From assembly GCA_027022365.1 (NCBI GenBank), contig JALVYU010000026.1:64001-128000 (forward strand): 64,000 nt of DNA, given 5' to 3'. The DNA comes from Desulfurococcales archaeon. Its GTDB lineage: Archaea > Thermoproteota > Thermoprotei_A > Sulfolobales > Desulfurococcaceae. The translations under genes were made by a program, and so were the position numbers. The stretch's first letter is position 1. Each line of letters starts with the position of its first letter. Below are positions 15,720 through 32,888 of this stretch, one piece after another. The notes beneath the pieces are model-generated. The model saw nothing but the letters and a program-made list of their open reading frames with translations. It did no database searches and had not been told where the DNA came from.

Positions 15720-15884
15720 GATGTACTAATCCCCAATTATATGCTATTATTTATTAAGTTTATGAAAATTTACTTATGTCGGCAATTAAACTCTCAGAAG
15801 CTTCACTTAAATTTGACGAATATTCTAGAAAGCTCTAATGATATAGAATAGAGAGGGATTTGCTGTTTCTAATAAAACTAATAG

Positions 15885-16496
15885 TTATGTTTTGTTTCTT
15901 TTATTTTCTTTCAGTCTTCTCAATAATGTTGAATATGATATATTGAGTAGTCTTGCACAGTCTCTTAGGCTAAGTCCTTTCCTGCGGTATTCTCGGAATT
16001 TCTTCCAGTCGATTTCTTTTCTCGGTCTGCCAATGTGTTTGCCCTGCATCTTCGCCCTCAGCATTCCTTCTCTGGTTCTTTGTCTTAGGAGTTCTCTTTC
16101 CCTCTCCGCGGCCCAAACCAGTACTGCTATGACTAGCTTTCTCACTTGTGGGTCTAGGTTTTGGAGGAACTTCTCCTTATCGCTGACAGTAATAACGGGG
16201 GAGTTCAGCTCCTCTAGCTCCTGGATGGCCCTGAGGGTTTCGTAGAATGTCCTCCCCAATCTGCTCAGCTCATATACTAGGACTGGCCTAGGCTTCTTCC
16301 GTGCATGCTCGATAAGCTCCTTGAAACCCTTCCTCTCCCAGGGAGGAACAGCCCCGCTAACACCAACGTCTTCAAACCACTCTACCACCTTGTAGCCGTT
16401 GGCATCAGCCCACCTCAGTATAGCCAGCCTCTGATTCTCAGGATGCTCCTCCCTCAAACTAACCCTAATATACGCATAGGCCTCGCTCGGCTCCAA
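15885..16496 (-). CDS. serine recombinase (resolvase/invertase)
   Basis: YIRVS, DVGVSG, LSRLGR, ERE..RT..G, GRP motifs and C-terminal HTH. Confidence 0.93.
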   Translation of the reverse strand: MEPSEAYAYIRVSLREEHPENQRLAILRWADANGYKVVEWFEDVGVSGAVPPWERKGFKELIEHARKKPRPVLVYELSRLGRTFYETLRAIQELEELNSPVITVSDKEKFLQNLDPQVRKLVIAVLVWAAERERELLRQRTREGMLRAKMQGKHIGRPRKEIDWKKFREYRRKGLSLRDCARLLNISYSTLLRRLKENKRNKT

Positions 16497-16731
16497 AACC
16501 CATATCCCCTTTTTTACAATAATCTATTGTAAAAACCTAGGCTTTTAAAACTAGGTGCAGAAGGGCCCCCTTTCGAAGCCGAAACGATCATACACTATAT
16601 AAATGAAAAATCTTCTTTGAAAATTCTAAAGAAGTATTATTTACTTGTTTAAATTGCTAGGAATATTTAATTTCTAGTTTTAAAGCTGGATAAATTAATA
16701 TCTTTAATGAAGCTGGCAAAATAAGGGATAT

Positions 16732-17467
16732 GTGATGCTGAGGAAAGCTATCTCGTTTGAAGACCGAGAGGCTATGGTTCTTCTTATCGCTGGTATAATC
16801 TTTATTCTGTTGGTGGGAATAAACTCTGTACTATATTATTATGGCAAGCTAGATGAGCTTTTTGTACATATTTCATTAATGGCTGTATATATTTTCACTG
16901 CGCTAGCGGTTCTATACCAGGCACTCTATACAAAAAGAATGGTTATAGAATCTAAGAGGGTACAAGCATGGCAGATAATAAGTAGTCATCTTTATCATCA
17001 TATAGCTGCATCAATCATGACCTTTAAGCTTGTAGCTAGAGATCTGGATAAATTATCTTCTAAGAAACATGCCGACTGGGAAACTATCAAAAAACTTTTC
17101 AGAACCCCTTTCGTAACCCATAATGCACCCTATATAATACAACCATATATAAAACCTAAACCAGGATTAGGCGCTGGAAGAGGAGCAGAAATATATCGCT
17201 ACAATCCCCGCATTTAATGAAGCCATAGAAGTGCTAGTAAAAGCATGTATAGTTTTAGGCGAGAAGGTGCTCAAAAAAGAATTAGAAAAACTCCGTGAAC
17301 AAATAAAAATGTTAGTAGTCGAAGAACCTAAACCTGAAAATATAAAAAGTATATTAACAACTTTAAAGAGCCATATCAAATCATTATCGGAAAAAGCCGA
17401 AGAAATATTCCATATACCTATAACTGAGCCTTTACTCGAAAGCTTTCAACCAAATATAGACAACTAA
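16732..17467 (+). pseudogene. membrane-anchored hypothetical protein split into two ORFs by an apparent frameshift (~17170-17215)
   Basis: Frame of the second ORF is open upstream of its GTG and overlaps the end of the first ORF. Confidence 0.45.
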
Positions 17468-17901
17468 TTATCATGTATCGAGTTTAATACATTGTAAAAT
17501 AGTAGTGTTGAAACTATTGAAACTATTTTATTCTTAATATTGATCGAGAAACACTGAAATATAAAGTATTTAATCTTTCGTTTAATCTTTCGGTCCCAAA
17601 GGCCAAAATAAAATTAACAAGCATTGTATCGTTTATGAATGCGATGAATTCTAGGCCATAATAATCCATATTCCACGAGTTTGTACGACCTGCCTATAAG
17701 CTTTTTCAGGGTATTAACTAATGCTCCAAATTGTGAAATATCATTAGGTTCAAGCCTACGCTTTGCTGTATTTATTCCACTTATTACTTGTATAGAAAAC
17801 GGAAATGCAGGGATCCCTAAATATATCAGCCGTTAGAAACCGTACAAAATAGAAGTTAATAAATAAATAATTATGCTTAACGAGTATATGGTGATACAAT
17901 A

Positions 17902-18828
17902 ATGGTTTCTGAAAATTTTTCATCATTTTCATTCGATGATCCCTCATTAATTCTTTCCATAATTTCGATCATTATATCAGCAACATCAGTTGCTGTAACC
18001 TTTCTATATAATAAACGCATGTACAAGCTAGCCTACGAACAAGACCTGTTAATAAGGAAGGAAAAACACTTCAATGAACTAAAGAAATACGTGATCGAGC
18101 CCCTTTTATATGAGGATAAGCGTTCAAGCTTTAATCCATACTTCTTCATAGACATGGTAAGATATCATTATCCTGAAGTAGGCGACCAAATAAAGCAACT
18201 AGTAAAGAAGTATAAATTATATGAAAACCTTGAAGAAAACATAGTAAATACTTGTCTTGCAATAATTAATGAAAAGGGAAGAAAGGAATCAATAGAATTT
18301 TCAATTACGAAATATAAATTAAAAGAACATTTGTCATCCATTATTCGTATTTTAATACACAATGAATTACAGTATCAAAAATACATAGACATAAAGCCTC
18401 CGCTAGAATTTCCTGTAGACGCCATACAAAATAAGGACAAACATAAATTAATTCAAATAACAGTTAGATATGAACTACGCTTCCTAGGGAGTACTATATA
18501 TGTGCATGAAGACGCTGATATAGTACTGAAAGCCAAAGAGGTTTTCTTAGAGGCACTTAATGAGATGCGAAACGATAAAAAATTAAGAAAACTAGCTGAG
18601 CAATATCAAAAAATAGGCCTAGAATTACCCAGATTGAACAGTAAAGTACGTAAAGAACTCATTCGCTTGCTCGAACAACCACCCACAGCACTAAAACTAG
18701 TTAACAATGTGCTATGCCCTTATATGAAAGGACAAGAAGATAAAGAATTTAGTAGGGAGGAAAAGACTATGATAGAGAATCTTTTAAAGAATTTCCCGGG
18801 AGAAAAAAGGGGATTTATTGTAGATTAA
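17902..18828 (+). CDS. hypothetical protein with N-terminal TM helix
   Basis: 308-aa ORF, hydrophobic N-terminus and GGTGA RBS. Confidence 0.7.
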   Translation: MVSENFSSFSFDDPSLILSIISIIISATSVAVTFLYNKRMYKLAYEQDLLIRKEKHFNELKKYVIEPLLYEDKRSSFNPYFFIDMVRYHYPEVGDQIKQLVKKYKLYENLEENIVNTCLAIINEKGRKESIEFSITKYKLKEHLSSIIRILIHNELQYQKYIDIKPPLEFPVDAIQNKDKHKLIQITVRYELRFLGSTIYVHEDADIVLKAKEVFLEALNEMRNDKKLRKLAEQYQKIGLELPRLNSKVRKELIRLLEQPPTALKLVNNVLCPYMKGQEDKEFSREEKTMIENLLKNFPGEKRGFIVD

Positions 18829-18963
18829 TTTATTATTAAGTATTGTTCATCACTATCCTGTATCTATAATTAATTTTTGAAAAAGACTCCCACATAAGCT
18901 AATTCCTACCAAAGTCTCCTTTGAAGCCATGAGTTAAAGCTTTAAATTCCTGACCTTATTGAT

Positions 18964-19326
18964 GTGGTTATGAAAAGGTTTATATGGTATGACAAGAATA
19001 CTTTCATCCTAGGTGATAGTATGACCATCGTTAAGAAGACTGTGGCGCTTCATCCTTTAGTTGATAGGGCTGTTAGAAGGCTATGGGCTAGACTGATTGA
19101 GGCTGGACTAGATGCTTCCTATTCTACGGCATTAAACTTATTGGTCATGCTTTCACTTTGCTCCGAGAACCTGGAGGACATAGGACTTGATAAAAAACAA
19201 TGTATGGGCCTCATGCTAGACATACTATTCAGAAACCGTGAAGACATAGAATTCAGCGAACACATGGTCAGAGCAGAAGAAATACTCACGAAGAAGATCA
19301 TACAGTATTTGACAAGAAAACAGTAA
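18964..19326 (+). CDS. hypothetical, possible RHH-like regulator (likely start ATG 19021)
   Basis: GGTGA RBS before 19021; KKTVALHPLVDRAVRR strand-helix pattern. Confidence 0.55.
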   Translation: MVMKRFIWYDKNTFILGDSMTIVKKTVALHPLVDRAVRRLWARLIEAGLDASYSTALNLLVMLSLCSENLEDIGLDKKQCMGLMLDILFRNREDIEFSEHMVRAEEILTKKIIQYLTRKQ

Positions 19327-19329
19327 AAC

Positions 19330-19425
19330 AGGCCGGGGGGATGATGAGCGCTCGGCGGTTTTACCCTCCAGCCCCACATGGAGGGGATAAAGAGCTTTTA
19401 AGGCGCTGACCCATACCCCCGGCCT
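19330..19425. ncRNA. candidate structured RNA / long hairpin
   Basis: 10-bp closing stem AGGCCGGGGG/CCCCCGGCCT, inner CCCTCCA/TGGAGGG stem, ATGATGA...CTGA on the + strand; TATA at 19453-60 positioned for - strand transcription. Confidence 0.5.
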
Positions 19426-19695
19426 CCAATATACTACTATTTTTCAAAGCCTTATATAAAGATATGAATTCAGGAATTTCCGGAGGCCCTACTCCATGAT
19501 CGAGATGAGCATCGAGATTGAAGGTAAGAGAGTTTATTTCTATCCTTTACTCTCGCGGAATGGCCTCAATGATTTTGTCTCATTAATTACTAGCACGGGC
19601 TTTAATACCGTGGTCGCTGGGTTTACACATAGTGTTATAGAGCTTGAGAATATGTTAGTAGATAATATCTCTACTATGAATGAAATCGGGTTTTC

Positions 19696-19881
19696 TATAT
19701 CATGAACAGTAAGAGCCAGGGCCTCACTCAGCCGGCAACCAGTATACACTAAGATCGATACAAGCGCTAGATCGCGTATACCGTATTGCCCCCGCTTATA
19801 AGCTCTATACGCTCTCTTCAAAGCATCAACCAAAGCCTCAAACCGGGGAACATCATCAAGCTTTAGTTTAGGACCACTCAA
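19696..19881 (-). pseudogene. truncated tyrosine recombinase (N-terminal catalytic box only)
   Basis: RDLALVSILVYTGCRLSEALALTVHDI followed by unrelated sequence; no HxxR or Y boxes. Confidence 0.75.
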
Positions 19882-20085
19882 ACATTTCCACCTACTAATA
19901 TTATGATTTAAAAAACGGAAATTAAACTTCGGGATCTAATAACGTCCCATTTCCGAAAAGTATTGAAAACGGAAATAAATTCACTTATTGAATATCGATT
20001 CCTCTATGTGTTCAGAGTTAGGTTTATTGATATTCAAGTATAAATACAATGTATACTTAGAAGGTGAAAAATACCCAAGATCACC

Positions 20086-20732
20086 ATGAGTGTTTCCCAA
20101 GAAATACTAGCCAGACTGGGAATAGACCGTAGAAGAGCAGCTTCTCTCCCCAAAGAACAAATACTAAAACTCAGCAAAACCGTTGAAAGAACCACCTATA
20201 ACGAGAAAGTTCTCATAAAACTATCCCAGAAGCTCTATAATGAGCTCTCAACACCCTTAGATAAAGCAATAAAGGATGAAACAGAGAAGCTCACAATAAT
20301 AGATCTTATCCGCACAATATCAAATCTAGACATTCTCTACGAACTAATCAAAGGAGAAGCAAACACACCAATAGAGGACAAGATCCTAAAATACATAGGA
20401 CTTGAAATAGAACTACTAAAAACTACCCTAGAAAAAAGATACGAGCTATTCAAAAACTCGAACGCGCCAAAGGAGAAATAAGGTTACGTAGAGTCGAAAA
20501 CATTCTCTTATCTATAGAAAAATCTATCGAACATGAAATGCTAACAGATATACTAAAAACCTCTATACATCTCCTAGCCTATGTAACAGGCCTAATACAA
20601 TCAGTAGACATAATAGGAAAGAATCTAAGAGAAGCAAACAAAGAATTATCACAAATGCTAGGCAACCTCCTAAACATATTAGAAGAAATAAATCCTCAGA
20701 AAAGGAACCGATCCTCAGAAATGTATGTATAA
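20086..20732 (+). pseudogene. coiled-coil hypothetical protein split by a +1 frameshift in the A5 run at ~20452
   Basis: KLERAKGEIRLRRVENILL... frame runs without a stop into ORF 20538-20732. Confidence 0.55.
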
Positions 20733-20760
20733 AATTATTCAAAAGGTCAAGGTATCATAA

Positions 20761-21837
20761 TTAGTTGACCCCTTCATATTTAACTATTAGCATATCTGAA
20801 GTAAACGCTATTGGAAAAAGATTAAGTTCTTCAGAAATTTTAACTATTTCTTCTTTTATAGCGTTTAAGATAATATTGTTTAATAGTTTGTCTTTCTTTT
20901 GATGAATATTGATTATATAATTAGCTGTTTCCTGTATAGTATATAAATTAAAGTCAGGAATAATTTCAATTATATTAAATCCCTCATTAAGTATATTTTC
21001 AACAATCTTCCTTTTATCTTTTGAAGCTACGTAGGGATACATTATATAGCCCTTTCTAAGACCATTAATCTTAAGAGCTTCTTTTCCACGTTTTATCCAA
21101 GTTAATAACTCTTTCATTGAATAATACGGATCGCATTCAAAGATATCGAAACGTCCTACGAGATCACGAGGTAAGGGATCAAATAGATCGTGATGTACTG
21201 TTTCTAGTGAAATTCCGTATTTATTTCCAATTTTGTTTAATTTATCTAATAAATCGGAATCCAAATCGATGACATATATTTTTAGATCAATTTCGTATTT
21301 TTTGAATAATATGCCAAGAGCAATGCTAAGACAATCATCATCGCCCAACATTACAGCATTTTTGAGTTCGAAACCATTATCGATTAATATTTTAATAGCT
21401 CTATTTACTATCGAATAAACATGTGCAGGGTATTGATTTAAATGACGTTTCAGTTTTATAGAGTTTCGAACATCATTTATCGCAGTTATTATTTCATAAA
21501 AAGTTTCTGAAGGAATATTTAATAACAATCTATTGTTAAGTGTTATTATTTTTTCTTCTTTAAGTATCTTCAATAAAGTATAAGAAGGTAAAATTCCTAT
21601 TTTTCTGACTATGTCACAAATAGACTTAAAATCAGAATTAGAAATAATAACTCTTGTCATGCATTCATAAAATATCTCATAAGGTATTTTTGAATAAAGA
21701 GCATTCCTTATTTCCTCTATATCTTTATATGTATTCGTATAAAGATATATTCCTATTTTTTCGAAGATCCTTATTATATATTTGGTTAATTGGTTAATGA
21801 ACGCATTATAGAGTTTATAACTCGTATTTGAATCCAT
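20761..21837 (-). CDS. BpsA-like (branched-chain polyamine synthase / DUF43) SAM-dependent transferase
   Basis: MLGDDDCLSIAL, VIDLD, HDLFDPLP, FDIFECDP and FNLY motifs typical of the BpsA C-terminal domain. Confidence 0.75.
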   Translation of the reverse strand: MDSNTSYKLYNAFINQLTKYIIRIFEKIGIYLYTNTYKDIEEIRNALYSKIPYEIFYECMTRVIISNSDFKSICDIVRKIGILPSYTLLKILKEEKIITLNNRLLLNIPSETFYEIITAINDVRNSIKLKRHLNQYPAHVYSIVNRAIKILIDNGFELKNAVMLGDDDCLSIALGILFKKYEIDLKIYVIDLDSDLLDKLNKIGNKYGISLETVHHDLFDPLPRDLVGRFDIFECDPYYSMKELLTWIKRGKEALKINGLRKGYIMYPYVASKDKRKIVENILNEGFNIIEIIPDFNLYTIQETANYIINIHQKKDKLLNNIILNAIKEEIVKISEELNLFPIAFTSDMLIVKYEGVN

Positions 21838-21854
21838 AAACTACACCCTATCTA

Positions 21855-22991
21855 TTATATTATGCCTTGATGAAAAAGTTTGTTTGAAAATGATTTTATA
21901 TAATGATATATATATTTCATAAGCTCACATTTATAGGTTACAGGAATATGTATATTGTTATAAAAATATTTACTCTCCAAGGGGCATTCACCACCACAGA
22001 TATTAATAGCTTTACACTTTAGACACTTAGGAATATTTACTGTTAATCTTTCATTCCATGTTTTAAAAGGATCTAATTTATCTAGTTCATTTAAATCCCT
22101 AATATTATTCACATCAATAAATTCAGAAGTTAAGGCAGCACAAGGACTAATGTACCCTCCCGGTGAATAAATAATATGAATACCACATCCAAAACAATCA
22201 GGAATAGGTGGTTCTTTTTTTAAATAATAGGATAGTGCTTCAGTTAACTTAGAGCTTATATAGGCATGCTTCTGGATGCTAACATTTAGTGCGTCCAGAA
22301 GAGCTTTAAATAACATCTGTGGGTCAAGAACTTCGTTTCTATTTCTTGCTATAGGTATATTTAAGTCTATGTACTTTGTTCGAGTAATATTTAATATATG
22401 AATTAGTGATTCTTTTATATGATTAATATTGTGTTTATGTATAGTACATGCTATTCTAAATCTTATATTAAATTTTCTTAAAAGATTAATAGCACTAACT
22501 ATCTCATGATACGAACCTGATCCGTCAGGTTTAATTCTCATGAGATCATTGATATTTTCTGGTCCGTCCAGGGATATTGCTATGTTTATATTTAATTCTT
22601 TTAAAAGTTTCACGATTTTTTCATCTATAAGTGTCCCGTTAGTTATAATAGAGATCGTATACGGGCCAGTATCATGTCTTAATATTATCTTTAATACTTT
22701 TTTAAACAATTCTTTATAGAGGAGAGGCTCTCCTCCATAAAATCTATATACTCTTCTTTTGTTTAAATTATGCCTTATGAACATTTTTAGAAAATATTCA
22801 AACTTATTAAAGTTAAATGTTTCATTTAAATTAAGTTTATGAACCAGATAACAATATCTACATCTAAGGTTACAGTGCCAAGTTGGTATTATATATAATA
22901 CTGAGTATTTTAATGAATCTCTATATTTTTTTATGCTTTTTATTAATTTTGATGTTTCATCGCTCAAAAAGCCAACACCTAGGATCTCCAT
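21855..22991 (-). CDS. radical SAM/SPASM peptide maturase
   Basis: CNLRCRYC, FYGGEPLL, ISLDG; SPASM C...GYISPC...CLKC.....CGGEC. Confidence 0.9.
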   Translation of the reverse strand: MEILGVGFLSDETSKLIKSIKKYRDSLKYSVLYIIPTWHCNLRCRYCYLVHKLNLNETFNFNKFEYFLKMFIRHNLNKRRVYRFYGGEPLLYKELFKKVLKIILRHDTGPYTISIITNGTLIDEKIVKLLKELNINIAISLDGPENINDLMRIKPDGSGSYHEIVSAINLLRKFNIRFRIACTIHKHNINHIKESLIHILNITRTKYIDLNIPIARNRNEVLDPQMLFKALLDALNVSIQKHAYISSKLTEALSYYLKKEPPIPDCFGCGIHIIYSPGGYISPCAALTSEFIDVNNIRDLNELDKLDPFKTWNERLTVNIPKCLKCKAINICGGECPLESKYFYNNIHIPVTYKCELMKYIYHYIKSFSNKLFHQGII

Positions 22992-24024
22992 GGTTTAAGT
23001 CCATATAATAAATATAAGACATTGCTGGACAACCACCACATATCTTTTGGAATTTACAGAATCGGCATTTACCTATAGATTCCCTTGCTACTTGCCTGTA
23101 ATATATGATCTTTTTCTTTATAAACAATTTAGTATTTAGAATATTGCCTATAGGGTCAGGTATATATAAGCAAGGAAGGATTGTTCCATCAGGCATCATA
23201 TATATCTTAGATATACACATGCCACAATATTTCTCTAAGTTGAACGTTTCTTTTATTCTTGTTGTATTAATTTGTTCTAATTGTTTATTATATTTTTTAA
23301 GGATATATGGAACTATAAAAGGAATGGTAGTTTTTACTTTAAAATCATTACGACCGTTGAACATATATTGAATATTTTTCTTAATAATAATTTCAAATAA
23401 TCTTTCATAATCTTTTTTATTTAGTATAATATCTTTAAGATTCTTGGCGCGACCTACCGGGATCAAATCGGTTAAAACGATGCCTTTAGAACCTATATTA
23501 TAAGCAAAATCGCAAAGACTATCTACATAGTTCAAATTCGTTTTTGTGACAACAGATGCAATACTAAAAGGTATTTCGTGCTTTTTTAATAATTTTAAAG
23601 TTCTTAGAACTTTTTTGAAAGTACCTCTGCCCCTGAACACATCATTTATATATTCTAATGGTGCATCCAGACTTATGATTATATCTATATAATCTTTTTC
23701 TTTAGCTAATAAATTGACAAATTGTTCTTTAATCAAAGTTCCATTAGTATTGATTCCTACCCTTATACCATAATCAATAAGTCTTTTAACTATTTCCGTA
23801 AATTGATTACATAAAAAGGGTTCTCCTCCAGTTATACCTATTTCTTTTATATTTAAATTTGAAAGTTTTTCCACGATTTCTAACTTTATACCATAATTGA
23901 TTTCTTTGAATAATTTACTTAAATAAACATTTGAACAATATGAGCAGTTTAAATTACACCTGAAAGTAACAACCCAAGTTATGTATTTAATATTTTTTAA
24001 AAAATCATATATTTTTTCATGCAT
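22957..24024 (-). CDS. radical SAM/SPASM enzyme
   Basis: CNLNCSYC, TGGEPF; SPASM CGMC...DGTILPC...CRFC.....CGGC...DPRC. Confidence 0.9.
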   Translation of the reverse strand: MHEKIYDFLKNIKYITWVVTFRCNLNCSYCSNVYLSKLFKEINYGIKLEIVEKLSNLNIKEIGITGGEPFLCNQFTEIVKRLIDYGIRVGINTNGTLIKEQFVNLLAKEKDYIDIIISLDAPLEYINDVFRGRGTFKKVLRTLKLLKKHEIPFSIASVVTKTNLNYVDSLCDFAYNIGSKGIVLTDLIPVGRAKNLKDIILNKKDYERLFEIIIKKNIQYMFNGRNDFKVKTTIPFIVPYILKKYNKQLEQINTTRIKETFNLEKYCGMCISKIYMMPDGTILPCLYIPDPIGNILNTKLFIKKKIIYYRQVARESIGKCRFCKFQKICGGCPAMSYIYYMDLNHGDPRCWLFER

Positions 24025-24053
24025 CTGTAGATCACTATTTAATATTATAGATA

Positions 24054-24194
24054 TTATGTTACGCCAGGACTAATTTGACACTTGCATTTAGCACATGCAG
24101 TCAATACATTATTTATTATCAACTTTAATACATCATCTTTATTGATAATAATTTCCTCCTCCGAAATTTTTGGATTAGCTAACTCAGCCAACAT
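24054..24194 (-). CDS. putative RiPP precursor peptide, 46 aa: MLAELANPKISEEEIIINKDDVLKLIINNVLTACAKCKCQISPGVT
   Basis: Hand-translated; GGTGA RBS and TTTATATA box upstream; first gene of the rSAM operon; acidic leader plus C-terminal CxxCxC core. Confidence 0.8.
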   Translation of the reverse strand: MLAELANPKISEEEIIINKDDVLKLIINNVLTACAKCKCQISPGVT

Positions 24195-24196
24195 TG

Positions 24197-24234
24197 TCAC
24201 CTAATTTATTGAAATGTTTCATATTATATATAAA
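24197..24234 (-). promoter_or_regulatory. TATA box (24227-34) and GGTGA RBS (24197-201) of the precursor gene
   Basis: TTTATATA lies 33 nt upstream of the ATG at 24194. Confidence 0.6.
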
Positions 24235-24321
24235 ATTTATTGTTGGTCTTAGTTCAGTGTTATTAAGATAATTTATAAATACCATAATTGAAATATAGAG
24301 AACGAAGTACCAATAATATGG

Positions 24322-25665
24322 TTGCTTGACCAAGAATATTGGATATTAATTGATATACTGATCTTATATGATATTGGTGAAATAATGTTTAGAAGAACGT
24401 ATGTATCATCGCTTTTTCTCGTATTGGTTGTTACTGTTGTTTTGCGGAGTATTGGTGATGTTGTTGAGGAGGTTACTGTTCCTTGGCAGGTGCTTGATTT
24501 TACGAATAGTATTTTTCTTGTTGGTGGTGTTTTTGTGTCGTATTTGTTGCCTTGGGTTTTTATTCCGTTTATTGCTGGTAGAGTTATTGATATTGCTAGG
24601 AATAAGTCCTTTGTTGTTGCTTTTTGTATGATTATGCAGATCTCGTCTGTTTTATTGATTATGTTCATGCTTTCTACTGGTTTAGAGACCTTATGGTTTC
24701 TCGGAATAGTCTATTTATCAATAATTGTTATAAGTACTACTGACTCTATACATAGGTATTTTGTGTTTACCAGCATTCCTGAACTAGTGGGGAAGAATGA
24801 GGCTCTCCTTAACAAGTTCAATAGTATTACAGAGCTTTCATCGGGAATAGGAACTATAGTCATGTATGTTCTCTGCGGATACTTGGTAGCAGTATATGGT
24901 TATAAGACGCTCTGGATAGACGTTTTATGCTTAACCATTATAGCTCTTCTACTAATCGATCTCAGCAGATCATTCAAAAAGAAACGCTTACGCTTCTACA
25001 AGGGTGCGTCTATGAATAAGGGCAAACAAATAAAATTTAAAGATCTGCTCAGTACTATAAAAAGGGATCCATTGGTGTTTTCTTACCTCGTTGTCGCTCT
25101 GGGTTTCAATTTCTTCACAGCACCCGTTTCTTTAGTTCTGATAAATTATCTTTACAATACCGTCGATGAACCCACTAAGTACTATGGCTTTATCATGGCG
25201 ATTTCAACTCTTGGAGCAATAATAGGTTCTGGCATAGTAGCTACGTATTCTAAAAAACTGAAATATATTTCTTGTATCATTATCGGGTTACTTGGTGAAG
25301 CAGTAGCTGTTGCAGGAGTATATTTCATAATAGCATATTCTAACGAATATTATAATTGGATACTTACCTTGTTATTAGTCACGGGTATGTATATGATAAT
25401 GGCTATTATGGGAGCAGTGCTGAATATAGGAGCTGATACATTGTTTCAAATGAGGATCCCAGAAGAAGTTCTAGGAAGTTTCAGGGGATTATTTGATAGT
25501 TTGGCCACTATTCCTATAGCATTATCATATATAGTTGTATCAACAATACTAGAGACGTGGGGATACACTATTATAACAGCATCACTAATGGGAATAGGAT
25601 CCATAATAATAGCCTTACTATACATAATCGCATATTCTATATTAATAAAGAAATTAAATACATAG
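24322..25665 (+). CDS. MFS transporter (MefA/peptide-export like)
   Basis: ~12 TM helices, AGRVIDIARNK loop, FQMRIPEEVLG; likely start 24385. Confidence 0.85.
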   Translation: MLDQEYWILIDILILYDIGEIMFRRTYVSSLFLVLVVTVVLRSIGDVVEEVTVPWQVLDFTNSIFLVGGVFVSYLLPWVFIPFIAGRVIDIARNKSFVVAFCMIMQISSVLLIMFMLSTGLETLWFLGIVYLSIIVISTTDSIHRYFVFTSIPELVGKNEALLNKFNSITELSSGIGTIVMYVLCGYLVAVYGYKTLWIDVLCLTIIALLLIDLSRSFKKKRLRFYKGASMNKGKQIKFKDLLSTIKRDPLVFSYLVVALGFNFFTAPVSLVLINYLYNTVDEPTKYYGFIMAISTLGAIIGSGIVATYSKKLKYISCIIIGLLGEAVAVAGVYFIIAYSNEYYNWILTLLLVTGMYMIMAIMGAVLNIGADTLFQMRIPEEVLGSFRGLFDSLATIPIALSYIVVSTILETWGYTIITASLMGIGSIIIALLYIIAYSILIKKLNT

Positions 25666-25669
25666 CAGG

Positions 25670-26851
25670 ATGATTATGATGCAAAAGTCTCGTTTAAAAC
25701 ATTTACAGATATTACCAACATTATCGTGTAATATGAACTGTGATTACTGTTACATAAAATTTGCTCCTATGACACAAATTAATTATAAAATGAGTAATGA
25801 TACAGTTGATCTGATAGTTGAATCTATACGCCAAAAAAAGCTTCAATTATCTGATAATGCTACAATTACATTTCTGGGTGGGGAAGTAACTCTTTGTCCA
25901 GAAATTATAGATAGATTTTTTATAAAGCTTCACGACAATCTAAAGAAGAATAAATATATTATCAATATCCAAACTAATGGTTTAGAAATAAGTTCCCTCA
26001 TAGAGATATTACGAAAATTCAAAGATATTTTACCGCAAATAAACATAACGATTAGCATAGATGGTTTTGAAAAAATTCATGACTTTTATAGAAAGGACAA
26101 AAATGGCAACGGGACATTCAAGAGGATCCAAAAGAATTTAATAATGTTATTGAGATTATTGCATCCTAGCAAGATAACTATTCAGTCAACATTAACAAAT
26201 AAAACAAAAAATATTCATAATTTTATAAAAACCTTTCACTCATATGGTATAACAAAATTTCAACTAGTACCTGTAATCACTCCTCCAAGTCTTAGTCATA
26301 TGAGAATTAAACCAACGAATTACCTTGATGAATATATCAAAGTCATCGATTACTATTTTGAGTGCTTAAAAAAAGAAAATCCATTTACAGAAGATTTAAT
26401 ATCTCATTATTTATACAGAATATTGTCTTTAACTAATATCTTGACTAATCCAACTAATTTTCCTGAAAATATATGTCCTATAGGGGTTTCTGTTCTTGCA
26501 ATCGATCCTAAAGGATATGTATATCCCTGTTCAATGTTTGTAGGTTTTAAAGACTATTGTCTCGGAAGGATTGATAATATAGATAAGACTAAAGTAGAAA
26601 ATATAGTTCGGAAAGTAATACAGGGAAGAAGGAAATATTGTAGAAATTGTAAATTAATTAATATCTGTGATCATGGATGCGTAGCAAGAAACCTTATAGA
26701 AAAAAGTGATATAGCTATATTCCCTAAAGAATATTGTAGTATTAAAAGAAATATAATATTATATATTATCAAAAAGCTTTCTAGTATATTACCGAATCTC
26801 AATCCATATTTTCAACATATAGAAAAAGAATTAAGTTTACAGTATTTATGA
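25670..26851 (+). CDS. radical SAM/SPASM peptide maturase (anSME/ranthipeptide-like)
   Basis: CNMNCDYC, FLGGE, ISIDG; SPASM CPIG...GYVYPC...CRNC.....CDHGC...YC. Confidence 0.9.
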   Translation: MIMMQKSRLKHLQILPTLSCNMNCDYCYIKFAPMTQINYKMSNDTVDLIVESIRQKKLQLSDNATITFLGGEVTLCPEIIDRFFIKLHDNLKKNKYIINIQTNGLEISSLIEILRKFKDILPQINITISIDGFEKIHDFYRKDKNGNGTFKRIQKNLIMLLRLLHPSKITIQSTLTNKTKNIHNFIKTFHSYGITKFQLVPVITPPSLSHMRIKPTNYLDEYIKVIDYYFECLKKENPFTEDLISHYLYRILSLTNILTNPTNFPENICPIGVSVLAIDPKGYVYPCSMFVGFKDYCLGRIDNIDKTKVENIVRKVIQGRRKYCRNCKLINICDHGCVARNLIEKSDIAIFPKEYCSIKRNIILYIIKKLSSILPNLNPYFQHIEKELSLQYL

Positions 26852-27321
26852 ATATAATTTTTAAATATCTTTGATAATCTAAGCAAATATTTTTTACCAA
26901 GCAGAGTTCTTTAGAAAATCTATAGCAACTATGTTGCTATAAATAACATCGTATTATATCCTTACAGCTTGACTACGAGAACGTATTCCATAATGTGTCG
27001 TTCAAAATTTACAATGGTCACGATGATTATACCGATTATCAATAAAAAATACTAATAATATAGATATTAACTCTCATATGAATTGACTGATTAATCTTAT
27101 CATAACTACGAAGGACATTGATCTAGCCCTATAGTTTGAGCGTATCGAATAGCCTTAGAAGAATAATGGTCCCGGTTAATATATGCATATACTAGAAGTC
27201 CAAGAATTCTATCTACTAAATTTTCTTGTCGCACCGCTTCCCCTCATTAATATTATAGACCTATATAAGCTGTCAAAACTTCTTCTAACAGGGTATTAAA
27301 TAATAATATACGGATTTGCGT

Positions 27322-29175
27322 CTAATAGGAGTGGGTAATTATATCAAGGGCTTTTTCTAGATCTATTTTTCCACCATACATTTGTATCGTTAATAGTAGT
27401 TTCACTGCCCATTCGCCGTGATGATCTCTTATTTGTGTTAAGAGTCTCTTGTCCAGTCCACGCATCGTGCCTGCAGGTGTTCGTGTTCTAATGTATTTCC
27501 ACAGGTCCGGGCTGTAATAGACCATGCCTTTCTCCAGGTCTACGGATATTAGTCCTACTTCTATTAGCTCGTATAGCTTTTTCCAGCCTGGATGTCTGGT
27601 GTAGTCTTCATATTTGGTCTCCTTGTCTAGTACTAGCTTGTTCTTCTTGAGGGCTTTGATGAGCTCTGGTATTATTTTCTTGATGACTATTTCGCCGCAC
27701 TGTATCACGGCCTGCTTGTAGAGGGGCTCGATAACGTTGACTAGGCCGGCTTCCCATAGTTGTCTTAGTTGTTGCTTGAGTCCTGGGCCTAGGCCTCTCC
27801 ACGCGGCCTCAACGATCTTTTCATAATCCTTCTCGGACAAAGTACATACTACTGGCTGCTTATTGAACACCGTCTCCACTAGAACCCGTTTCAGCCCCGC
27901 CTTAACCTCTGCTATCTCCCGGTGTAACTTGGCTATTGAGCCAGCAACATCTACGTGGGCCTGGAAGAGATTCAATAAGTCCTCAACACTCATCTCATTC
28001 TTTCTCCTACGGATCCTCCTCTCAATTCTCAGCGGTCCATCACCGTCGACACCACCCTTTAGGTAGGCAACCAAGTCCCCGGCCGTGAACTGGCCGGCCC
28101 GGAACTGGAGGCTACCCCTCCACAAATCACAGTGCAGGTCGACACGTAGAACAGATAAATCAACAACCCCAACCTCTACACCAAGAACCCCGGAAAGCTC
28201 CCCAACCAAAGCCTCCAGAAACCCCTCAAGCTCCCCGGGACCACTAAAAGACCCAGAAACAATAACCTCACAACCACCACTATATCCACACAAAACCCTA
28301 ACCCTACGACCCAAAACCTCAAACACAAACCCAAGCTTACCACCCATACCACTACCAACAACCCGAAAACCCCTCCTCGACAAACACACAAAACCACAAT
28401 GCCCCGGAACATACAAAACCAAACCATTAACACCACAAGAACCATCCTCACCACTAACACCGCCAAACCCAGCCGCAGGCGGGGCCCCTCCCCCAGCCTC
28501 CCCGATCACATTTTGCCCGGTATCAGAACCCTTGCTGGCGTCGGGGGCTTTACTACTACATATTAATGGTAATAGTGAACAAATCCTATTGGAAACCCTG
28601 TAGAGTCCCCGCTTAATCCTCTCGACATAGCCTGTTCTACGGAGCCTCCACAGATACTTCTTAACAAGATGGGGATCCAGTTTCAGGTAGAAGGCTAGAG
28701 TAGAAGGAGTAAACACCCGGAGCCTAGCTGCAGCCTCCAGGATCCTGCGGGAGACCATGCCTAGGAGACTAGGTCTAGGATGCCTTGAGACACTACTTGA
28801 GACACCCGGACCAGGAGTCACATCAACTCCATGAGACAAAGGACTAGAAGTCACTTCAAGACCATGAGACACCCTAGCAGAAGTCTCTTCACAACATGAG
28901 ACAACTCCATGAGACACCTGGTTGCTGGAGCACTTCTTCCTAGAGACAGGTAATAAGCCAGCAGCTGTCTCATTATAGGCTATATGAGACATTTGATTAG
29001 ACCTAGACCTCTTCGGAACATAGACTCCCAGAGCGATAAGCTTCCTACGAACCCAATCCTTAGAGATATAGAGGTTAAACCTAGAGGAAACCATACGGGC
29101 TATCTTACGGAGACTAAACCCTTGACGGTAGAGCTCTACGGTATACAAGAGAACAGGATCCAGGGACTGGGCCAA
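27322..29175 (-). CDS. multi-HTH protein, candidate replication initiator/relaxase
   Basis: N-terminal HTH, repeat-rich linker, wHTH (LWRLRRTGYVERIKRGLY), RVDLHCD...YLK...LRIE segment and coiled coil. Confidence 0.55.
   Translation of the reverse strand: MAQSLDPVLLYTVELYRQGFSLRKIARMVSSRFNLYISKDWVRRKLIALGVYVPKRSRSNQMSHIAYNETAAGLLPVSRKKCSSNQVSHGVVSCCEETSARVSHGLEVTSSPLSHGVDVTPGPGVSSSVSRHPRPSLLGMVSRRILEAAARLRVFTPSTLAFYLKLDPHLVKKYLWRLRRTGYVERIKRGLYRVSNRICSLLPLICSSKAPDASKGSDTGQNVIGEAGGGAPPAAGFGGVSGEDGSCGVNGLVLYVPGHCGFVCLSRRGFRVVGSGMGGKLGFVFEVLGRRVRVLCGYSGGCEVIVSGSFSGPGELEGFLEALVGELSGVLGVEVGVVDLSVLRVDLHCDLWRGSLQFRAGQFTAGDLVAYLKGGVDGDGPLRIERRIRRRKNEMSVEDLLNLFQAHVDVAGSIAKLHREIAEVKAGLKRVLVETVFNKQPVVCTLSEKDYEKIVEAAWRGLGPGLKQQLRQLWEAGLVNVIEPLYKQAVIQCGEIVIKKIIPELIKALKKNKLVLDKETKYEDYTRHPGWKKLYELIEVGLISVDLEKGMVYYSPDLWKYIRTRTPAGTMRGLDKRLLTQIRDHHGEWAVKLLLTIQMYGGKIDLEKALDIITHSY
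28786..28991. repeat. iteron-like TGAGACA repeat cluster inside the 617-aa gene
   Basis: TGAGACA at 28786, 28798, 28832, 28865, 28897, 28910 and 28985; AGAGACA at 28942; inverted TGTCTCA at 28966. Confidence 0.75.
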
Positions 29176-29418
29176 AGCAATTACCCCTCGTGACGAGAGA
29201 TGACTATGTAGGCGGAATCACTGTATTTCTTCACGAGTCCTAACCAGCGGGTAACTGGTATGTGCCAAGCCTTGATAATACCTCCACGCCTACGTAGCAC
29301 AACAAGAACCAGCACACCGCGGAAAATGATTTTGACTAAACGCCTCCGAATCAATGCCTTAACCCTCAGGAAACACTTGTACGGCTACGTTTTCCGGGCA
29401 ATATTCTCGAGTAAAGTG

Positions 29419-29574
29419 CTAGGCGTAGGCCTTCGCCCTCCTCTTAGCGAGCAGGTATTTCACCAGGTAGGCTTCAGGACCGAGTCTAGAAAGAACCCTC
29501 TCCACGATAGCCGGATCCTCCTTCTGGATCTCCTCAATAAGTCTCCGGGCCTCCTCGAGGGCCCGCTTATTCAT
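29419..29574 (-). CDS. small helical hypothetical protein, 51 aa (MNKRALEEARRLIEEIQKKDP...)
   Basis: Hand-translated; start overlaps the stop of the upstream gene in the same operon. Confidence 0.5.
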   Translation of the reverse strand: MNKRALEEARRLIEEIQKEDPAIVERVLSRLGPEAYLVKYLLAKRRAKAYA

Positions 29575-30190
29575 TCCCCACAGCCTCTTCGAGGAGGGTC
29601 TTATGCTTGTTAATGATGGAGCGGGCTATGCGGAGGAGCCGATTAAACGTTGTTTCGCTGACGAGGGGTTTCAGCCCATCCAAGTCTCTATAGGAGAAAG
29701 TATAGCGGCCTCGGAGAAGCTCGTAGACGATATAGGATAGCAGGTATCTGCCGCGAATACTCCTATTAATAGCCAGAGGCTCGACTTCCCCGAGAACACC
29801 GATGATCCTGTCAAGGACCGGGCGTAGCCCCCTTTTCTCAAACCAGTCGAGAACCTCGATGCTCTTCCGAGAATACACAGTAAGCACAAACCTGCCCTGC
29901 CTAAGCAGCCTCTCCTCATCCACCATGTACCCCCGACTCGTAATAGACCTGGCGAGCCTGAGTAACCTGTAGTGTTTACGGAGCCTATGCTCAAGCCTCC
30001 TAAGCTCCCTATCGGCCCGGTAACCGTAGCGTCTAAGACGTTTACGCTACTCGATCCTAGCCCATTCCCTGGCCTCCTCCCCTACGTGAACCGGGCCGTA
30101 GTCGTAGATCCTGTCGACAACCTCCCCGGTATCCATGCATACTACTTCTCCACGCGTATAATCCCATATGAGCTGTCTACACTCATCCAT
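29567..30190 (-). pseudogene. TFIIB-type Zn-ribbon protein interrupted by one in-frame TAG (30047-49)
   Basis: MDECRQLIWDYTRGEVVCMDTGEVVDRIYDYG; frame continues past the TAG into ORF 29567-29926. Confidence 0.7.
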
Positions 30191-30422
30191 AGCTATCACC
30201 CAGCTCCTCCACGCACTCCTCCAACAGCTCCCTCTCCAGCCTGCACTCCCTATCCCACTCGAGACTGTGGACCCAGCACTCCAGGAGAGAATCAATAAAT
30301 CCCCTGCACCGAGCCCTGACAACACTGTAAGGCAACCCATACCTATCCGCAAGCTCCAAAACAAGATCCTCAACACGATGCACTAACACGGTTAATGGCT
30401 CGATATACATAAAAGAGATCAC
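30183..30422 (-). CDS. small hypothetical protein
   Basis: Translationally coupled between the wHTH gene and the TFIIB-like gene. Confidence 0.55.
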   Translation of the reverse strand: MISFMYIEPLTVLVHRVEDLVLELADRYGLPYSVVRARCRGFIDSLLECWVHSLEWDRECRLERELLEECVEELGDSYG

Positions 30423-30685
30423 CTTGTTGAGCTCTGGGTTACTGTTTGAAGCTCTTTAGTAATTCTGTGAAGAACTTCAAGCCCCTTCTTTGTAATGGAG
30501 TATTTTCCTTTAGAAACTTTAATTACGAATCCATGGATTATCAGCTCCTTGATATTATAATATATTGTTCCGACTGAAAGACCCGTTATTGATAGTAGCT
30601 CACTCAGCGATTTTGGCCCATCGCTTAACGCATATAATATCTTGCCCTGTGAAGATAACATTTTAATTACTTTGACGTCCTGCAT
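30419..30685 (-). CDS. winged-HTH transcription regulator
   Basis: GPKSLSELLSITGLSVGTIYYNIKEL...GKYSITKKG; GAGGT RBS. Confidence 0.82.
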   Translation of the reverse strand: MQDVKVIKMLSSQGKILYALSDGPKSLSELLSITGLSVGTIYYNIKELIIHGFVIKVSKGKYSITKKGLEVLHRITKELQTVTQSSTR

Positions 30686-30711
30686 GTTTCTTACCTCACT
30701 TTTTAAACAGA

Positions 30712-30942
30712 GTGCTTAAGGAACTAGAAAAGAGAGAACACCTGCTGATTTCAGAAGCTATAGCCATAGCGGGCTCAACAGTATTCTATCAGAGATACCT
30801 TCCATATCTCGAAGAAAAAGGATATGTTGTAAGCGAGAAAAAAAGAGAAGGGAGAAGAACAATAAGACTAATCAAGCTCACTGAGAAGGGCAAAAAGCTT
30901 CTCGAGCTCCTTGAGGAAATTAATAAGCTTGACAGGGAGTGA
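30712..30942 (+). CDS. winged-HTH transcription regulator
   Basis: LEEKGYVVSE...LIKLTEKGK wing motif. Confidence 0.75.
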   Translation: MLKELEKREHLLISEAIAIAGSTVFYQRYLPYLEEKGYVVSEKKREGRRTIRLIKLTEKGKKLLELLEEINKLDRE

Positions 30943-30990
30943 GTATAGTGTAGGCTTCGATGAGTTAATGGTAGTGTTCGGGGATATTAG

Positions 30991-31704
30991 GTGCTTATAA
31001 CGGATAGGGAGTTTCTTCGCAAACGGGATAGAGTTGTTCGTGATTTAATGAGATTATTTGATTCTTTAGGTATTGATAAGGGGTTCTTGAATGAACTTTA
31101 TAGTTGTAAGAGGGTTTCAGAGTTCAAGGATTGTTTAACGAAAGTGCTGAATAGTATAGATGCCCGAGGATTGATAGAGGATAGGGATTCATTTGCCAGT
31201 GATCTTAACAAGATTCTTACCAGGATACTGTTGAAGGCTGTCTTCATTAATGATAAATGGATTATATTCTACAGGGGACGTGGAAAAGGTAGCCGTGCCT
31301 ATGGGAGAATACGTATAGTAGTAAGTGTTATAAGTGGGGGTATAGCGGGTTTCTTCTACCTAGGCCTCTTCCTCCTATTTTTAGAGGTATATGATTTTCC
31401 AGGATTCATAAAGTACTGTACGTGGATAGCATTCGCTTACAATTCTTTTTGGACCATAGGCTACTTTATCGGGCTAAGAGAATGGACTACGGGAAAATAT
31501 AGTGTTAAACAATATATTGTAAACACCCTCTATATCCTAGCCCTCAACATTGTATTAGCGATGGTGTTTAGCCTTTTATACAGGGGAAATCCCTCATATC
31601 TCCTATATGCAGTAATATACCTGGGTTTAGCTATACTTCCATTTAAACCTAGACAAGAACGAGGAGAAGCCCCACCACCAATCTTCATACCAATACCTGT
31701 ATAG
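30991..31704 (+). CDS. membrane protein (~4 C-terminal TM helices)
   Basis: Hydrophobic C-terminal half. Confidence 0.65.
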   Translation: MLITDREFLRKRDRVVRDLMRLFDSLGIDKGFLNELYSCKRVSEFKDCLTKVLNSIDARGLIEDRDSFASDLNKILTRILLKAVFINDKWIIFYRGRGKGSRAYGRIRIVVSVISGGIAGFFYLGLFLLFLEVYDFPGFIKYCTWIAFAYNSFWTIGYFIGLREWTTGKYSVKQYIVNTLYILALNIVLAMVFSLLYRGNPSYLLYAVIYLGLAILPFKPRQERGEAPPPIFIPIPV

Positions 31705-31748
31705 CTTCGCTGGCTACCCCGTGGAAAGCTCTTCTACTAGCTTCTCTA

Positions 31749-32564
31749 CTATATTATATTATTGACTATATCTATGAATTTTCTGAAGTCATGGTTTTTC
31801 TCGGTCTCCTGCTTTATTACCGCGAAATAATCGGCAATAGTTTTCACGTTTTTCTGGGAGAGCAGTTTATTTATTCTATTTATGGATTCCAGCACGTTTT
31901 CGGCTGTTAATTCCCGGTTCATAAGGGCTTTGTATATTTCTTGTTTTAGCATTCTCCTTGCGGCTGGATAGACCCTTCTATACATGTTTATGTCAACTGT
32001 GTAGCCGCGTTTTCCTCTATAACCTTTCAGAAACAGTTCTCTCCTTACCAGCTCACTCAGCAACTCCGAGGAGGCATTGACGAGAACATCCACAGATAAC
32101 ATTCTTTCATTAAGCCATTCCTCCACGATCTTTATTACCTGGTCGATTTTGCCGAAGAACTTCTCCCTAACACTCTCGAAGACCTCTTCATAGTAAGGAC
32201 AGGATTCTTCGATAGCACGACATCTATCCATATACATTGAAAACAATGACTCGATATCTCTTCTAACATTGTCCCGATCCATGCCTTTTCTAAGATCATT
32301 CTCTATCCGGTTAAGGATGAAGTGGGCCAGTAAACACTTAGCTCCATGTATCCCGTAGTTCTTTACTATATAGCTGTACATGAGTGGGAACTCGTTCTTC
32401 TTAAACCCGAAATGAACCGGGGCCTTCTCCTCCAAATCCTGGTATGGGAGAACATCTTTAACCCGCGGAGGCTCTTCATCAATAACCCTATCTATAACCC
32501 TACACAGAACATCGTCTAATCCAAGGATCCTATAAACCTTGGAGTGAATCTCCCAGCCCGGCAT
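31749..32564 (-). CDS. MPxWxxH-type hypothetical protein (possible metal-dependent hydrolase)
   Basis: MPGWEIH...ID...H...HFILN; paralog of 39646-40407. Confidence 0.6.
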   Translation of the reverse strand: MPGWEIHSKVYRILGLDDVLCRVIDRVIDEEPPRVKDVLPYQDLEEKAPVHFGFKKNEFPLMYSYIVKNYGIHGAKCLLAHFILNRIENDLRKGMDRDNVRRDIESLFSMYMDRCRAIEESCPYYEEVFESVREKFFGKIDQVIKIVEEWLNERMLSVDVLVNASSELLSELVRRELFLKGYRGKRGYTVDINMYRRVYPAARRMLKQEIYKALMNRELTAENVLESINRINKLLSQKNVKTIADYFAVIKQETEKNHDFRKFIDIVNNII

Positions 32565-32720
32565 AGGATATCAGCCTAATATTAGTTTATGAGGTCTTCT
32601 CCATAAAAAGGGTACATGGAGTATCTTGGAAGATAAGGTACTTGGGGATTATGATATGCCGAAAAACCTGTGGCTTCAGGCGACGGGTGGGCAGGGAACG
32701 CTTTTCTAGCTCTTTCTGGG

Positions 32721-32888
32721 CTACTTGTGTATTCCTAGCCTGGCTATTACTCCGGCTACGTGTTCTTGTTCTAGGGTATCAATTATATCGTCAATGATCT
32801 CAAGTGCTTCATCTATGCTTGGGGCTGTAGCTACCCGGTCTCGGATATACTTTATGATTGCTATGCATTCGGAGCATGGGTTGTTCAC
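32721..32888 (-). CDS. small hypothetical protein, 55 aa (MNNPCSECIAIIKYIRDRV...)
   Basis: Hand-translated; GGAGGTGG RBS upstream of the GTG. Confidence 0.5.
   Translation of the reverse strand: MNNPCSECIAIIKYIRDRVATAPSIDEALEIIDDIIDTLEQEHVAGVIARLGIHK

Follow-up and report, generated by a model that had tools for sequence, protein, structure and literature searches.

We analysed a 64,000-nucleotide (nt) window from the genome of a Desulfurococcales archaeon (contig JALVYU010000026.1, positions 64,001 to 128,000 of the forward strand); all coordinates below are those of the window unless a contig is named. Inside a strain-specific mobile element, the window carries an AT-rich gene module of about 7 kb that encodes three radical S-adenosylmethionine (SAM) enzymes of the SPASM type, a BpsA-like transferase, a transporter of the major facilitator superfamily (MFS) and, in a small open reading frame (ORF), a cysteine-bearing peptide. 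The six ORFs form two divergent operons. On the minus strand the small ORF is followed by the genes for rSAM-B, rSAM-A and a BpsA_C-domain protein, and on the plus strand the MFS gene is followed by the gene for rSAM-C after a gap of 4 nt. The features of the module are as follows.

20761..21837, minus strand: BpsA_C-domain protein (PF01861) of 358 amino acids (aa), a putative aminopropyltransferase dependent on decarboxylated SAM (dcSAM); last gene of its operon
21855..22991, minus strand: rSAM-A, a radical SAM/SPASM protein of 378 aa with a Pfam Radical_SAM match
22957..24024, minus strand: rSAM-B, a radical SAM/SPASM protein of 355 aa; first enzyme gene after the peptide ORF
24054..24194, minus strand: ORF for a candidate precursor peptide of 46 aa (48 aa if the start is the GTG at 24200)
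24195..24384, no strand: divergent control region, the sequence between the peptide ORF and the MFS gene
24322 (TTG start, 447 aa) or 24385 (ATG start, 426 aa) to 25665, plus strand: MFS transporter (MFS_1)
25670..26851, plus strand: rSAM-C, a radical SAM/SPASM protein of 393 aa with Pfam Radical_SAM and SPASM matches

The minus-strand genes are tightly packed. The small ORF and rSAM-B are separated by 29 nt, rSAM-B and rSAM-A overlap by 35 nt, and 17 nt lie between rSAM-A and the BpsA-like gene. The GC content is 29.5% across 20001-27100 and 27-35% in single module genes, compared with 44% in the conserved flanks and 37-47% in the rest of the element. The tight spacing and the uniform 27-35% GC indicate that the module is one co-inherited unit. 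All five large ORFs are intact, and every catalytic and cluster-binding motif is kept. The original prediction for this DNA had described the same six ORFs in the same two operons, and an AT-rich block completed by a divergent MFS-rSAM operon; both descriptions agree with what we found. We did not find a second Cys-rich small ORF downstream of rSAM-C. No Rfam family matched in the divergent control region and spacer, and the spacer folded no better than shuffled sequences (z = 0.24). A bacterial promoter and terminator scan was uninformative. Two further AT-rich ORFs on the plus strand, at 20086-20481 (131 aa) and 20538-20732 (64 aa), converge on the end of the BpsA-like gene. Neither has a convincing family match; their composition is that of the module, to which they could belong, perhaps with a role in immunity or regulation.

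All three radical SAM proteins contain the CX3CX2C motif, starting at residue 40 in rSAM-A, 23 in rSAM-B and 20 in rSAM-C, and all three pass the Pfam Radical_SAM cut-off of 29.5 bits (PF04055; 75.6, 85.6 and 61.9 bits, respectively). The SPASM signature comprises seven cysteines, in the arrangement CXnGX4C, CX2CX5CX2-3C and a final Cys, that serve two auxiliary clusters. We found the full set in rSAM-A (266-284, 323-336 and C355), in rSAM-B (267-285, 320-332 and C350) and in rSAM-C (269-287, 324-337 and C356), while the Pfam SPASM model passes its cut-off in rSAM-C only (23.7 versus 21.5 bits). The three radical SAM/SPASM enzymes that had been predicted are thus present with their cluster-binding cysteines. 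Pairwise identity among them is 25-29% (rSAM-A is 29% identical to rSAM-B and 25% to rSAM-C), which indicates three different enzymes and not recent copies. A separate paralogue with about 29% identity is encoded elsewhere in the genome (C31:37845-38870).

We compared the enzymes to NCBIfam models and to solved structures. The best models for rSAM-A were PapB (128 bits against a cut-off of 340), DynA (125/450) and anSME (120/349). Those for rSAM-C were PapB (162/340), DynA (109/450), HxsB (108/370), QhpD (104/453) and the SCIFF maturase (100/425). For rSAM-B they were AhbD (151/500), NirJ2 (136/500), ScmE (124/400) and MftC (123/265), with lower scores for NirJ (97.5/515) and PqqE (75 bits). 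Taken together, almost all of the top neighbours of the three enzymes are maturases of peptides or proteins (PapB, DynA, anSME, CbpB, HxsB, QhpD, SCIFF maturase, ScmE and MftC). The nearest solved structures are anSME (4k37) and CteB (5wgg) for rSAM-A, SkfB (6efn) and anSME (4k37) for rSAM-B, and CteB followed by anSME for rSAM-C; PqqE is also among them. The database proteins nearest to rSAM-B are named MftC or ScmE by their sources, and the best non-self match is 31% identical. By sequence, then, rSAM-A and rSAM-C sit among peptide and protein maturases, and rSAM-B sits between tetrapyrrole and peptide enzymes. The original prediction had left the class of the enzymes to profile hidden Markov models. 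These placed them mainly beside maturases, as it had supposed, but at scores that reach no cut-off and with rSAM-B nearest to AhbD and NirJ2.

The last gene of the minus-strand operon encodes a member of the BpsA family. PF01861 (BpsA_C) matched residues 151-307 with 87.7 bits, over its cut-off of 27, and the genome search gave 88.2 bits; no NCBIfam model matched the protein. We aligned it with 29 of the best 150 representatives, and in this 30-sequence alignment it keeps all eight invariant positions (Q135, GDDD165-168, D193, P237 and Y299). The GDDD motif is reported to be indispensable in Tk-BpsA from Thermococcus, an enzyme that carries the aminopropyl group on a flexible acidic C-terminal cluster, with Glu and Asp packed tightly at residues 339-345 (PMC12979288). 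The C-terminal tail of the module protein holds scattered acids only (E329, E330, E336, E337, D348 and E355). Its nearest solved structures are 2qm3 and BpsA itself (5xnc, 42 bits). The host has two AdoMet decarboxylase (AdoMet_dc) genes, so dcSAM should be available to it. PF01861 scores above its cut-off in only one of 41 genomes of the order, which is the genome studied here, and crenarchaeal hyperthermophiles are described as mostly lacking branched polyamines (PMC12979288); together these observations suggest that the gene is foreign to the lineage. Relatives in representative genomes are 28-35% identical and come from Bathyarchaeia, Promethearchaeota, Desulfurobacteriaceae, candidate-phyla bacteria and Xenorhabdus. 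Around 20 Xenorhabdus species have a conserved protein of about 500 aa with a BpsA_C-like domain, and such proteins are found in Pediococcus pentosaceus as well. Their identity to the module protein is 24-31%, and their flanks contain no relative of the module's radical SAM or MFS proteins. The MFS protein of the module matches MFS_1 (61.7 bits) and MFS_3 (29.6 bits) in Pfam, and TIGR00900 with 95.5 bits, under the cut-off of 319.6.

The small ORF at 24194 to 24054, which the original prediction had reported as hidden, was recovered with exactly the sequence quoted for it. Its 46-aa product is also recorded as a called protein in a collection of 5.8 billion proteins. Residues 1-31 are acidic (isoelectric point 4.4), and the C-terminal tail TACAKCKCQISPGVT is basic (isoelectric point 8.7). 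The tail holds Cys34, Cys37 and Cys39 together with Lys36 and Lys38, and the peptide ends in PGVT. Within the 297-nt spacer, ORFs of at least 46 aa that are co-directional with rSAM-B and end no more than 60 nt from it arose in 2.4-3.0% of shuffles (p 0.024-0.030). A codon-usage model trained on the five large module genes gave the small ORF 0.198 bits per codon, within the range of those genes (0.18-0.26), and random stop-free ORFs of equal length reached this score in 3.0-3.8% of cases. The predicted GGTGA ribosome-binding site is present 2 nt 5' of the ATG at 24194, as a Shine-Dalgarno motif. GGTG(A) also occurs 6 nt before the BpsA-like gene and 4 nt before the MFS ATG at 24385, and GTGAT occurs before rSAM-B. 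Two other parts of the prediction fared less well. A TATA-like string does lie 31-46 nt upstream of the ATG, but it carries no weight as a TATA box in DNA of 26% GC; and the matching of three cysteines to three maturases was numerology with no basis. At E<=0.01 neither Pfam nor NCBIfam had a family that matched the peptide, and relaxing the Pfam search to E<=10 gave none either. Placement, codon usage, Shine-Dalgarno motif and charge split lend moderate support to the view that the small ORF is a gene.

The module lies within a strain-specific stretch. Over positions 1-13424 the window aligns with same-genus genomes at 92-94% identity; the match stops exactly there, and synteny resumes at 43922 (congener G004, 97%) or at 47128 (congener G005, 94%). 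The region 20001-40000 had no match in four of the five congeners, one of them 99% complete; the fifth gave weak matches of 71-74% to 30.7-37.1 kb only. The element and its other features are as follows.

13425..43900, no strand: strain-specific integrated element of about 30-34 kb, bounded by synteny breaks; right end approximate (~43.9-47.1 kb)
13475-14623: tyrosine integrase in the element, near its left end
15885-16496: serine resolvase in the element
19540-19881: truncated integrase fragment in the element
27322-29175, minus strand: AbiEi-like ORF of 617 aa and about 51% GC, with an AbiEi_4-like winged-helix match of 23.8 bits, under the cut-off of 25
34807-35877, plus strand: transglutaminase-like protein in the element, near the ATPase gene
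36510-38465, minus strand: HerA/TrwB/TraG-like ATPase of 651 aa, with HerA/DUF87, TrwB and TraG-D_C matches and a PadR-like winged helix

The presence of an integrase, a resolvase and a TraG/HerA-like ATPase in a strain-specific stretch indicates an integrated, conjugative-plasmid-like element. The ATPase and the transglutaminase-like protein in such a stretch are typical of conjugative cargo, and the AT-rich module is a nested acquisition inside the element. No direct repeats flank the element ends. In congener G005 the two flanks are about 132 kb apart and inverted relative to the genome studied here: the left one ends at C5:65979 (plus strand) and the right one starts at C5:197808 (minus strand). 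The element thus appears to sit at a rearrangement breakpoint and not at a simple insertion. The AbiEi-like ORF, which abuts the AT-rich module, has a long low-complexity middle rich in Gly, Ser and Val.

The host genome is 1.74 Mb in 44 contigs and 99.97% complete, with a GC content of 44-47%. An archaeal small-subunit ribosomal RNA (SSU rRNA) is present, and two genes score above the reverse gyrase cut-off. Reverse gyrase is tied to hyperthermophily, and these genes and the archaeal SSU rRNA together support a hyperthermophilic archaeon. The original prediction had placed the cluster on a mobile element of a hyperthermophile. Both points hold: the strain-specific element starts at 13425, carries an integrase at 13475 and is absent from congeners, and the host has the two reverse gyrases.

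We propose that the module is a plausible orphan cluster for the biosynthesis of a peptide made by ribosomes and modified after translation (RiPP) or a RiPP-like product, carried as cargo of the integrated conjugative-plasmid-like element in a hyperthermophilic archaeon from vents. Our confidence in this reading is about evenly balanced. Translation of the 46-aa ORF would yield a precursor that consists of an acidic leader, about 30 residues long, and the basic core TACAKCKCQISPGVT. At its CX3CX2C cluster, each SPASM enzyme would cleave SAM, and it would abstract a hydrogen atom from the peptide. With two auxiliary Fe-S clusters per enzyme, cross-links or oxidations would be installed at or near the three cysteines, and thioether bridges of the sactipeptide or ranthipeptide type would be the likeliest linkage. 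The radical SAM motifs begin at residues 20-40, which leaves no room for an N-terminal recognition domain in any of the enzymes. They would therefore have to recognize the peptide directly, in place of using an N-terminal RiPP recognition element (RRE). The BpsA-family enzyme may aminopropylate an amine with dcSAM; the acceptor could be a polyamine or the peptide itself, at Lys36, Lys38 or a new N-terminus. The MFS protein would export the product or protect the producer, and the product may be bioactive, possibly as an archaeocin.

A bolder version of this proposal is improbable. It would make the product a new class of ribosomal peptide, in which three RRE-less SPASM enzymes each lock one Cys of a CAKCKC core and the BpsA-family enzyme aminopropylates both lysines or the new N-terminus with dcSAM. 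The result would be a polycationic, heat-stable product spread by a conjugative element among hyperthermophilic archaea of vents. If this version were true, it would represent the first polyamine-synthase fold acting on a peptide.

Several observations weigh against the RiPP-like reading. No radical SAM protein of the module attains any NCBIfam cut-off, and rSAM-B scores highest with the tetrapyrrole enzymes AhbD and NirJ2, at less than a third of either cut-off. Residues 4-361 of rSAM-C align with residues 91-440 of CteB, so that rSAM-C has no counterpart of the first ~90 residues of CteB, which we take to be its RRE. Searches with Pfam and NCBIfam gave no RRE or PqqD domain in any module protein, and Pfam at E<=10 gave no RRE within residues 1-150 of the BpsA-like protein. 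The ORF list and Pfam revealed no peptidase and no ABC-type exporter within the module. An ORF of at least 46 aa arises anywhere in the spacer in 13-18% of shuffles, and some spurious stop-free runs within the module reach 0.21-0.30 bits per codon. The core has three cysteines only and lacks any Cys-X3-Asp-type motif, of the kind found in PapB substrates. Among 5.8 billion proteins, the peptide has no homologue besides itself. No collection searched contained a syntenic cluster in which conservation of the peptide, the strongest line of evidence, could be seen. A radical SAM match, which was weak and about 3.5 kb away, was found in the flanks of only one of 68 BpsA-family loci.

These loci came from genome contigs, many of them short. 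We took the stop-to-stop ORFs in their flanks that were 70 aa or longer and scored them in phmmer with the module's five large proteins; an MFS match beside the BpsA-family gene occurred in none of the 68. The highest identity between a module protein and any relative was about 39%. The best rSAM-B matches in 40 related genomes were 30% identical over the full length, and all were paralogue-like; the 5.8 billion proteins contained no non-self match above 31%. For the BpsA-like protein, the same collection gave one match (30% identity over 51% of the query), and 1.84 billion representatives gave 775 matches at E<=0.001, with a best non-self identity of 39%. A single-sequence search of metagenome contigs with rSAM-B found no relative. 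An alignment search of those contigs with rSAM-B relatives gave 491 relatives, of which 80 were kept, all at most 38% identical. A second radical SAM match occurred at 7 of these 80 loci, and a BpsA-like or MFS match at none. A search of 400 other genomes from the phylum with rSAM-C gave nothing at E<=1e-25. Four scans of viral contigs gave nothing closer than 30% identity, and the ten matches listed from 189 plasmid records were all below 30%.

Short contigs identical to the module, at low depth, were present in vent-metagenome runs of three further studies, and one of them spans 23921-24192 without any difference. Because these contigs are identical, they offer no variation for testing selection on the small ORF. 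Joints of 21 letters in the table of runs were set aside as cross-matches. There was no RNA run among the sequencing runs listed as matching the module, which bears on expression in neither direction.

The strongest alternative is a real pathway whose substrate is not the small ORF. In this scheme the enzymes would tailor either a small molecule not made by ribosomes, for instance a modified or branched polyamine or a cofactor resembling a tetrapyrrole, or else a protein whose gene lies elsewhere. The MFS protein would move the product, and the 46-aa ORF would have arisen by chance in the divergent promoter region. We consider this scheme unlikely. The BpsA family is reported to act on polyamines (PMC12979288). 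The best scores of rSAM-B are to AhbD and NirJ2, and the MFS protein matches MFS_3 and DHA-type families, which are small-molecule carriers. The missing RRE and protease fit a small-molecule substrate as well, as does a peptide that is conserved nowhere we searched and whose like appears in 13-18% of shuffles. However, the nearest families and structures of all three enzymes are mostly peptide or protein modifiers, the scores with AhbD and NirJ2 stay under one third of the respective cut-offs, and placement, codon usage and the Shine-Dalgarno motif each favour a gene. A literature search that combined BpsA, radical SAM and peptide gave nothing relevant, and we are aware of no case in which three SPASM enzymes act on a polyamine.

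In a second alternative, the peptide would be the scaffold of a peptide-derived redox cofactor, following the logic of PQQ or mycofactocin, and not a secreted bioactive peptide. rSAM-B does resemble MftC (123 bits) and PqqE (75 bits), its nearest proteins are named MftC by their sources, and the PGVT end of the peptide loosely recalls the C-terminal Gly-Val-Tyr of MftA. The match to MftC falls short of the cut-off of 265, though, and the peptide lacks the C-terminal Tyr. None of the six module proteins matches PqqD/RRE or another accessory family in Pfam or NCBIfam. The module also includes a transporter and lies on a mobile element absent from congeners, unlike a core cofactor pathway. These points make the cofactor scheme quite improbable.

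We assign a similarly low likelihood to the module being non-functional or decaying cargo, with ORFs that are intact only through recent acquisition. Its foreign composition is extreme (29.5% GC in a 44% GC host) and the surrounding element is mosaic, with a truncated integrase, yet the five large ORFs are intact, all catalytic and cluster-binding motifs are kept, and identical short contigs occur in runs of three further studies. Anti-virus defence by viperin-like radical SAM enzymes that make chain-terminating nucleotides is very improbable: PADLOC pVip models match the three proteins at 53-83 bits and the module sits on a mobile element beside an AbiEi-like ORF, but these matches are confined to the generic radical SAM core, all three proteins have a SPASM region whereas viperins lack this domain, the NCBIfam prokaryotic viperin model (NF038283) scores 54-78 bits against a cut-off of 180, and no other module protein matches PADLOC.

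At 48033-48157 and 50200-50360, stretches of about 50-150 nt match many separate contigs in all five same-genus genomes at 70-100% identity. They are probably copies of a small dispersed repeat or members of a family of small RNA genes. The similar multi-copy match at 57336-57428 is the tRNA-Leu gene. The archaeal SSU rRNA match of the host (C7:10-1907) lies at the start of its contig in six pieces with gaps between the model segments, which suggests insertions or introns, or partial assembly.

We compared the putative RiPP-like cluster to characterized systems. Like the systems of PapB (NF047865) and SCIFF-type maturases (CteB; PDB 5wgg and 5why), it combines a radical SAM core and a full SPASM region with a short precursor, of about 45 aa and with C-terminal cysteines, encoded beside the enzyme. 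Among NCBIfam models PapB scores best with both rSAM-A and rSAM-C, and the top solved structure for rSAM-C is that of CteB. The scores remain far below the cut-offs, at 128 and 162 bits against 340 for PapB and at 74 and 100 bits against 425 for the SCIFF maturase (TIGR03974). The module peptide has three cysteines and not the six of SCIFF, and it matches no NCBIfam family at E<=0.01 although NCBIfam includes a SCIFF precursor model. The module also has three different maturases, a BpsA-family gene and an MFS gene, where a single enzyme is usual. The anaerobic sulfatase maturase anSME (PDB 4k36-4k39) is the best solved structure for rSAM-A and the second best for rSAM-C, and, as a SPASM enzyme that lacks an RRE, it acts directly on a Cys or Ser of its substrate. 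rSAM-A and rSAM-C score 120 and 100 bits against its cut-off of 349. There is no sulfatase family among the module proteins or the flanking ORFs scanned, and the module peptide has no visible Cys-X-Pro-X-Arg-type motif, which marks anSME substrates.

The MftC, ScmE and AhbD-NirJ group contains the families and sequences nearest to rSAM-B, and MftC and ScmE belong to small-peptide systems. Their models remain well out of reach of rSAM-B (123/265, 124/400 and 151/500 for MftC, ScmE and AhbD), the closest sequence is 31% identical and no PqqD/RRE match occurs in the module. MftA ends in Gly-Val-Tyr, whereas the module peptide ends in GVT. With BpsA, the N4-bis(aminopropyl)spermidine synthase (PDB 5xnc and 6j27; EC 2.5.1.128), the module protein shares the BpsA_C domain, the GDDD motif, the invariant residues and a family-typical N-terminal region. 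It differs from BpsA in that the PDB match reaches 42 bits only, the acidic C-terminal cluster is weak and the gene stands in an operon with two SPASM enzymes, an association with at most one parallel among the 68 related loci. Among the matches listed, we found no literature precedent that ties the BpsA/PF01861/DUF43 family to radical SAM peptides or RiPPs. An aminopropyl group derived from SAM does occur in a ribosomal peptide product, microcin C. The enzymes of that pathway, MccD and MccE, are unrelated to BpsA, and the group is placed on a phosphoramidate and not on a side-chain amine.

An archaeal SPASM enzyme is known from CrpABC of Methanococcus voltae, where it reportedly forms thioether (ranthionine) links on a Cys-rich substrate whose gene is adjacent (PMC13692751). 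CrpC belongs to TIGR04463, has a predicted RRE and acts on a large repeat protein according to the same source, whereas the module enzymes score 70-80 bits against the TIGR04463 cut-off of 525, have no detected RRE and are paired with a candidate substrate of 46 aa. Radical SAM RiPP clusters for ranthipeptides and sactipeptides have been predicted across archaea, including the TACK lineages (PMC12144867), and expressed ranthipeptide clusters have been reported in vent archaea (PMC13635244). These two reports describe archaeal RiPP clusters as widely predicted and their identified products as very few, and the parts of them drawn on here mention no characterized radical SAM-modified peptide from the host's phylum. 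The predicted clusters and the methanogen thioether enzyme indicate that the general kind of system is already known. What appears unusual in the module is that three highly divergent SPASM enzymes may share one small candidate precursor, that a BpsA-family gene stands in a radical SAM operon, that the searches made returned no relatives of this arrangement, and that a mobile element carries it.

If the RiPP-like reading is correct, three very divergent SPASM enzymes would recognize their substrate without an RRE, and the module could contain the first BpsA-type aminopropyltransferase in a peptide pathway. It would also represent secondary-metabolite cargo that moves on an archaeal conjugative element at high temperature. 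Given a host with two reverse gyrases, the enzymes may withstand heat and could serve as tools for cross-linking peptides. Should the substrate be something other than the product of the small ORF, the module would still point to unknown SPASM chemistry with a link to polyamine metabolism.

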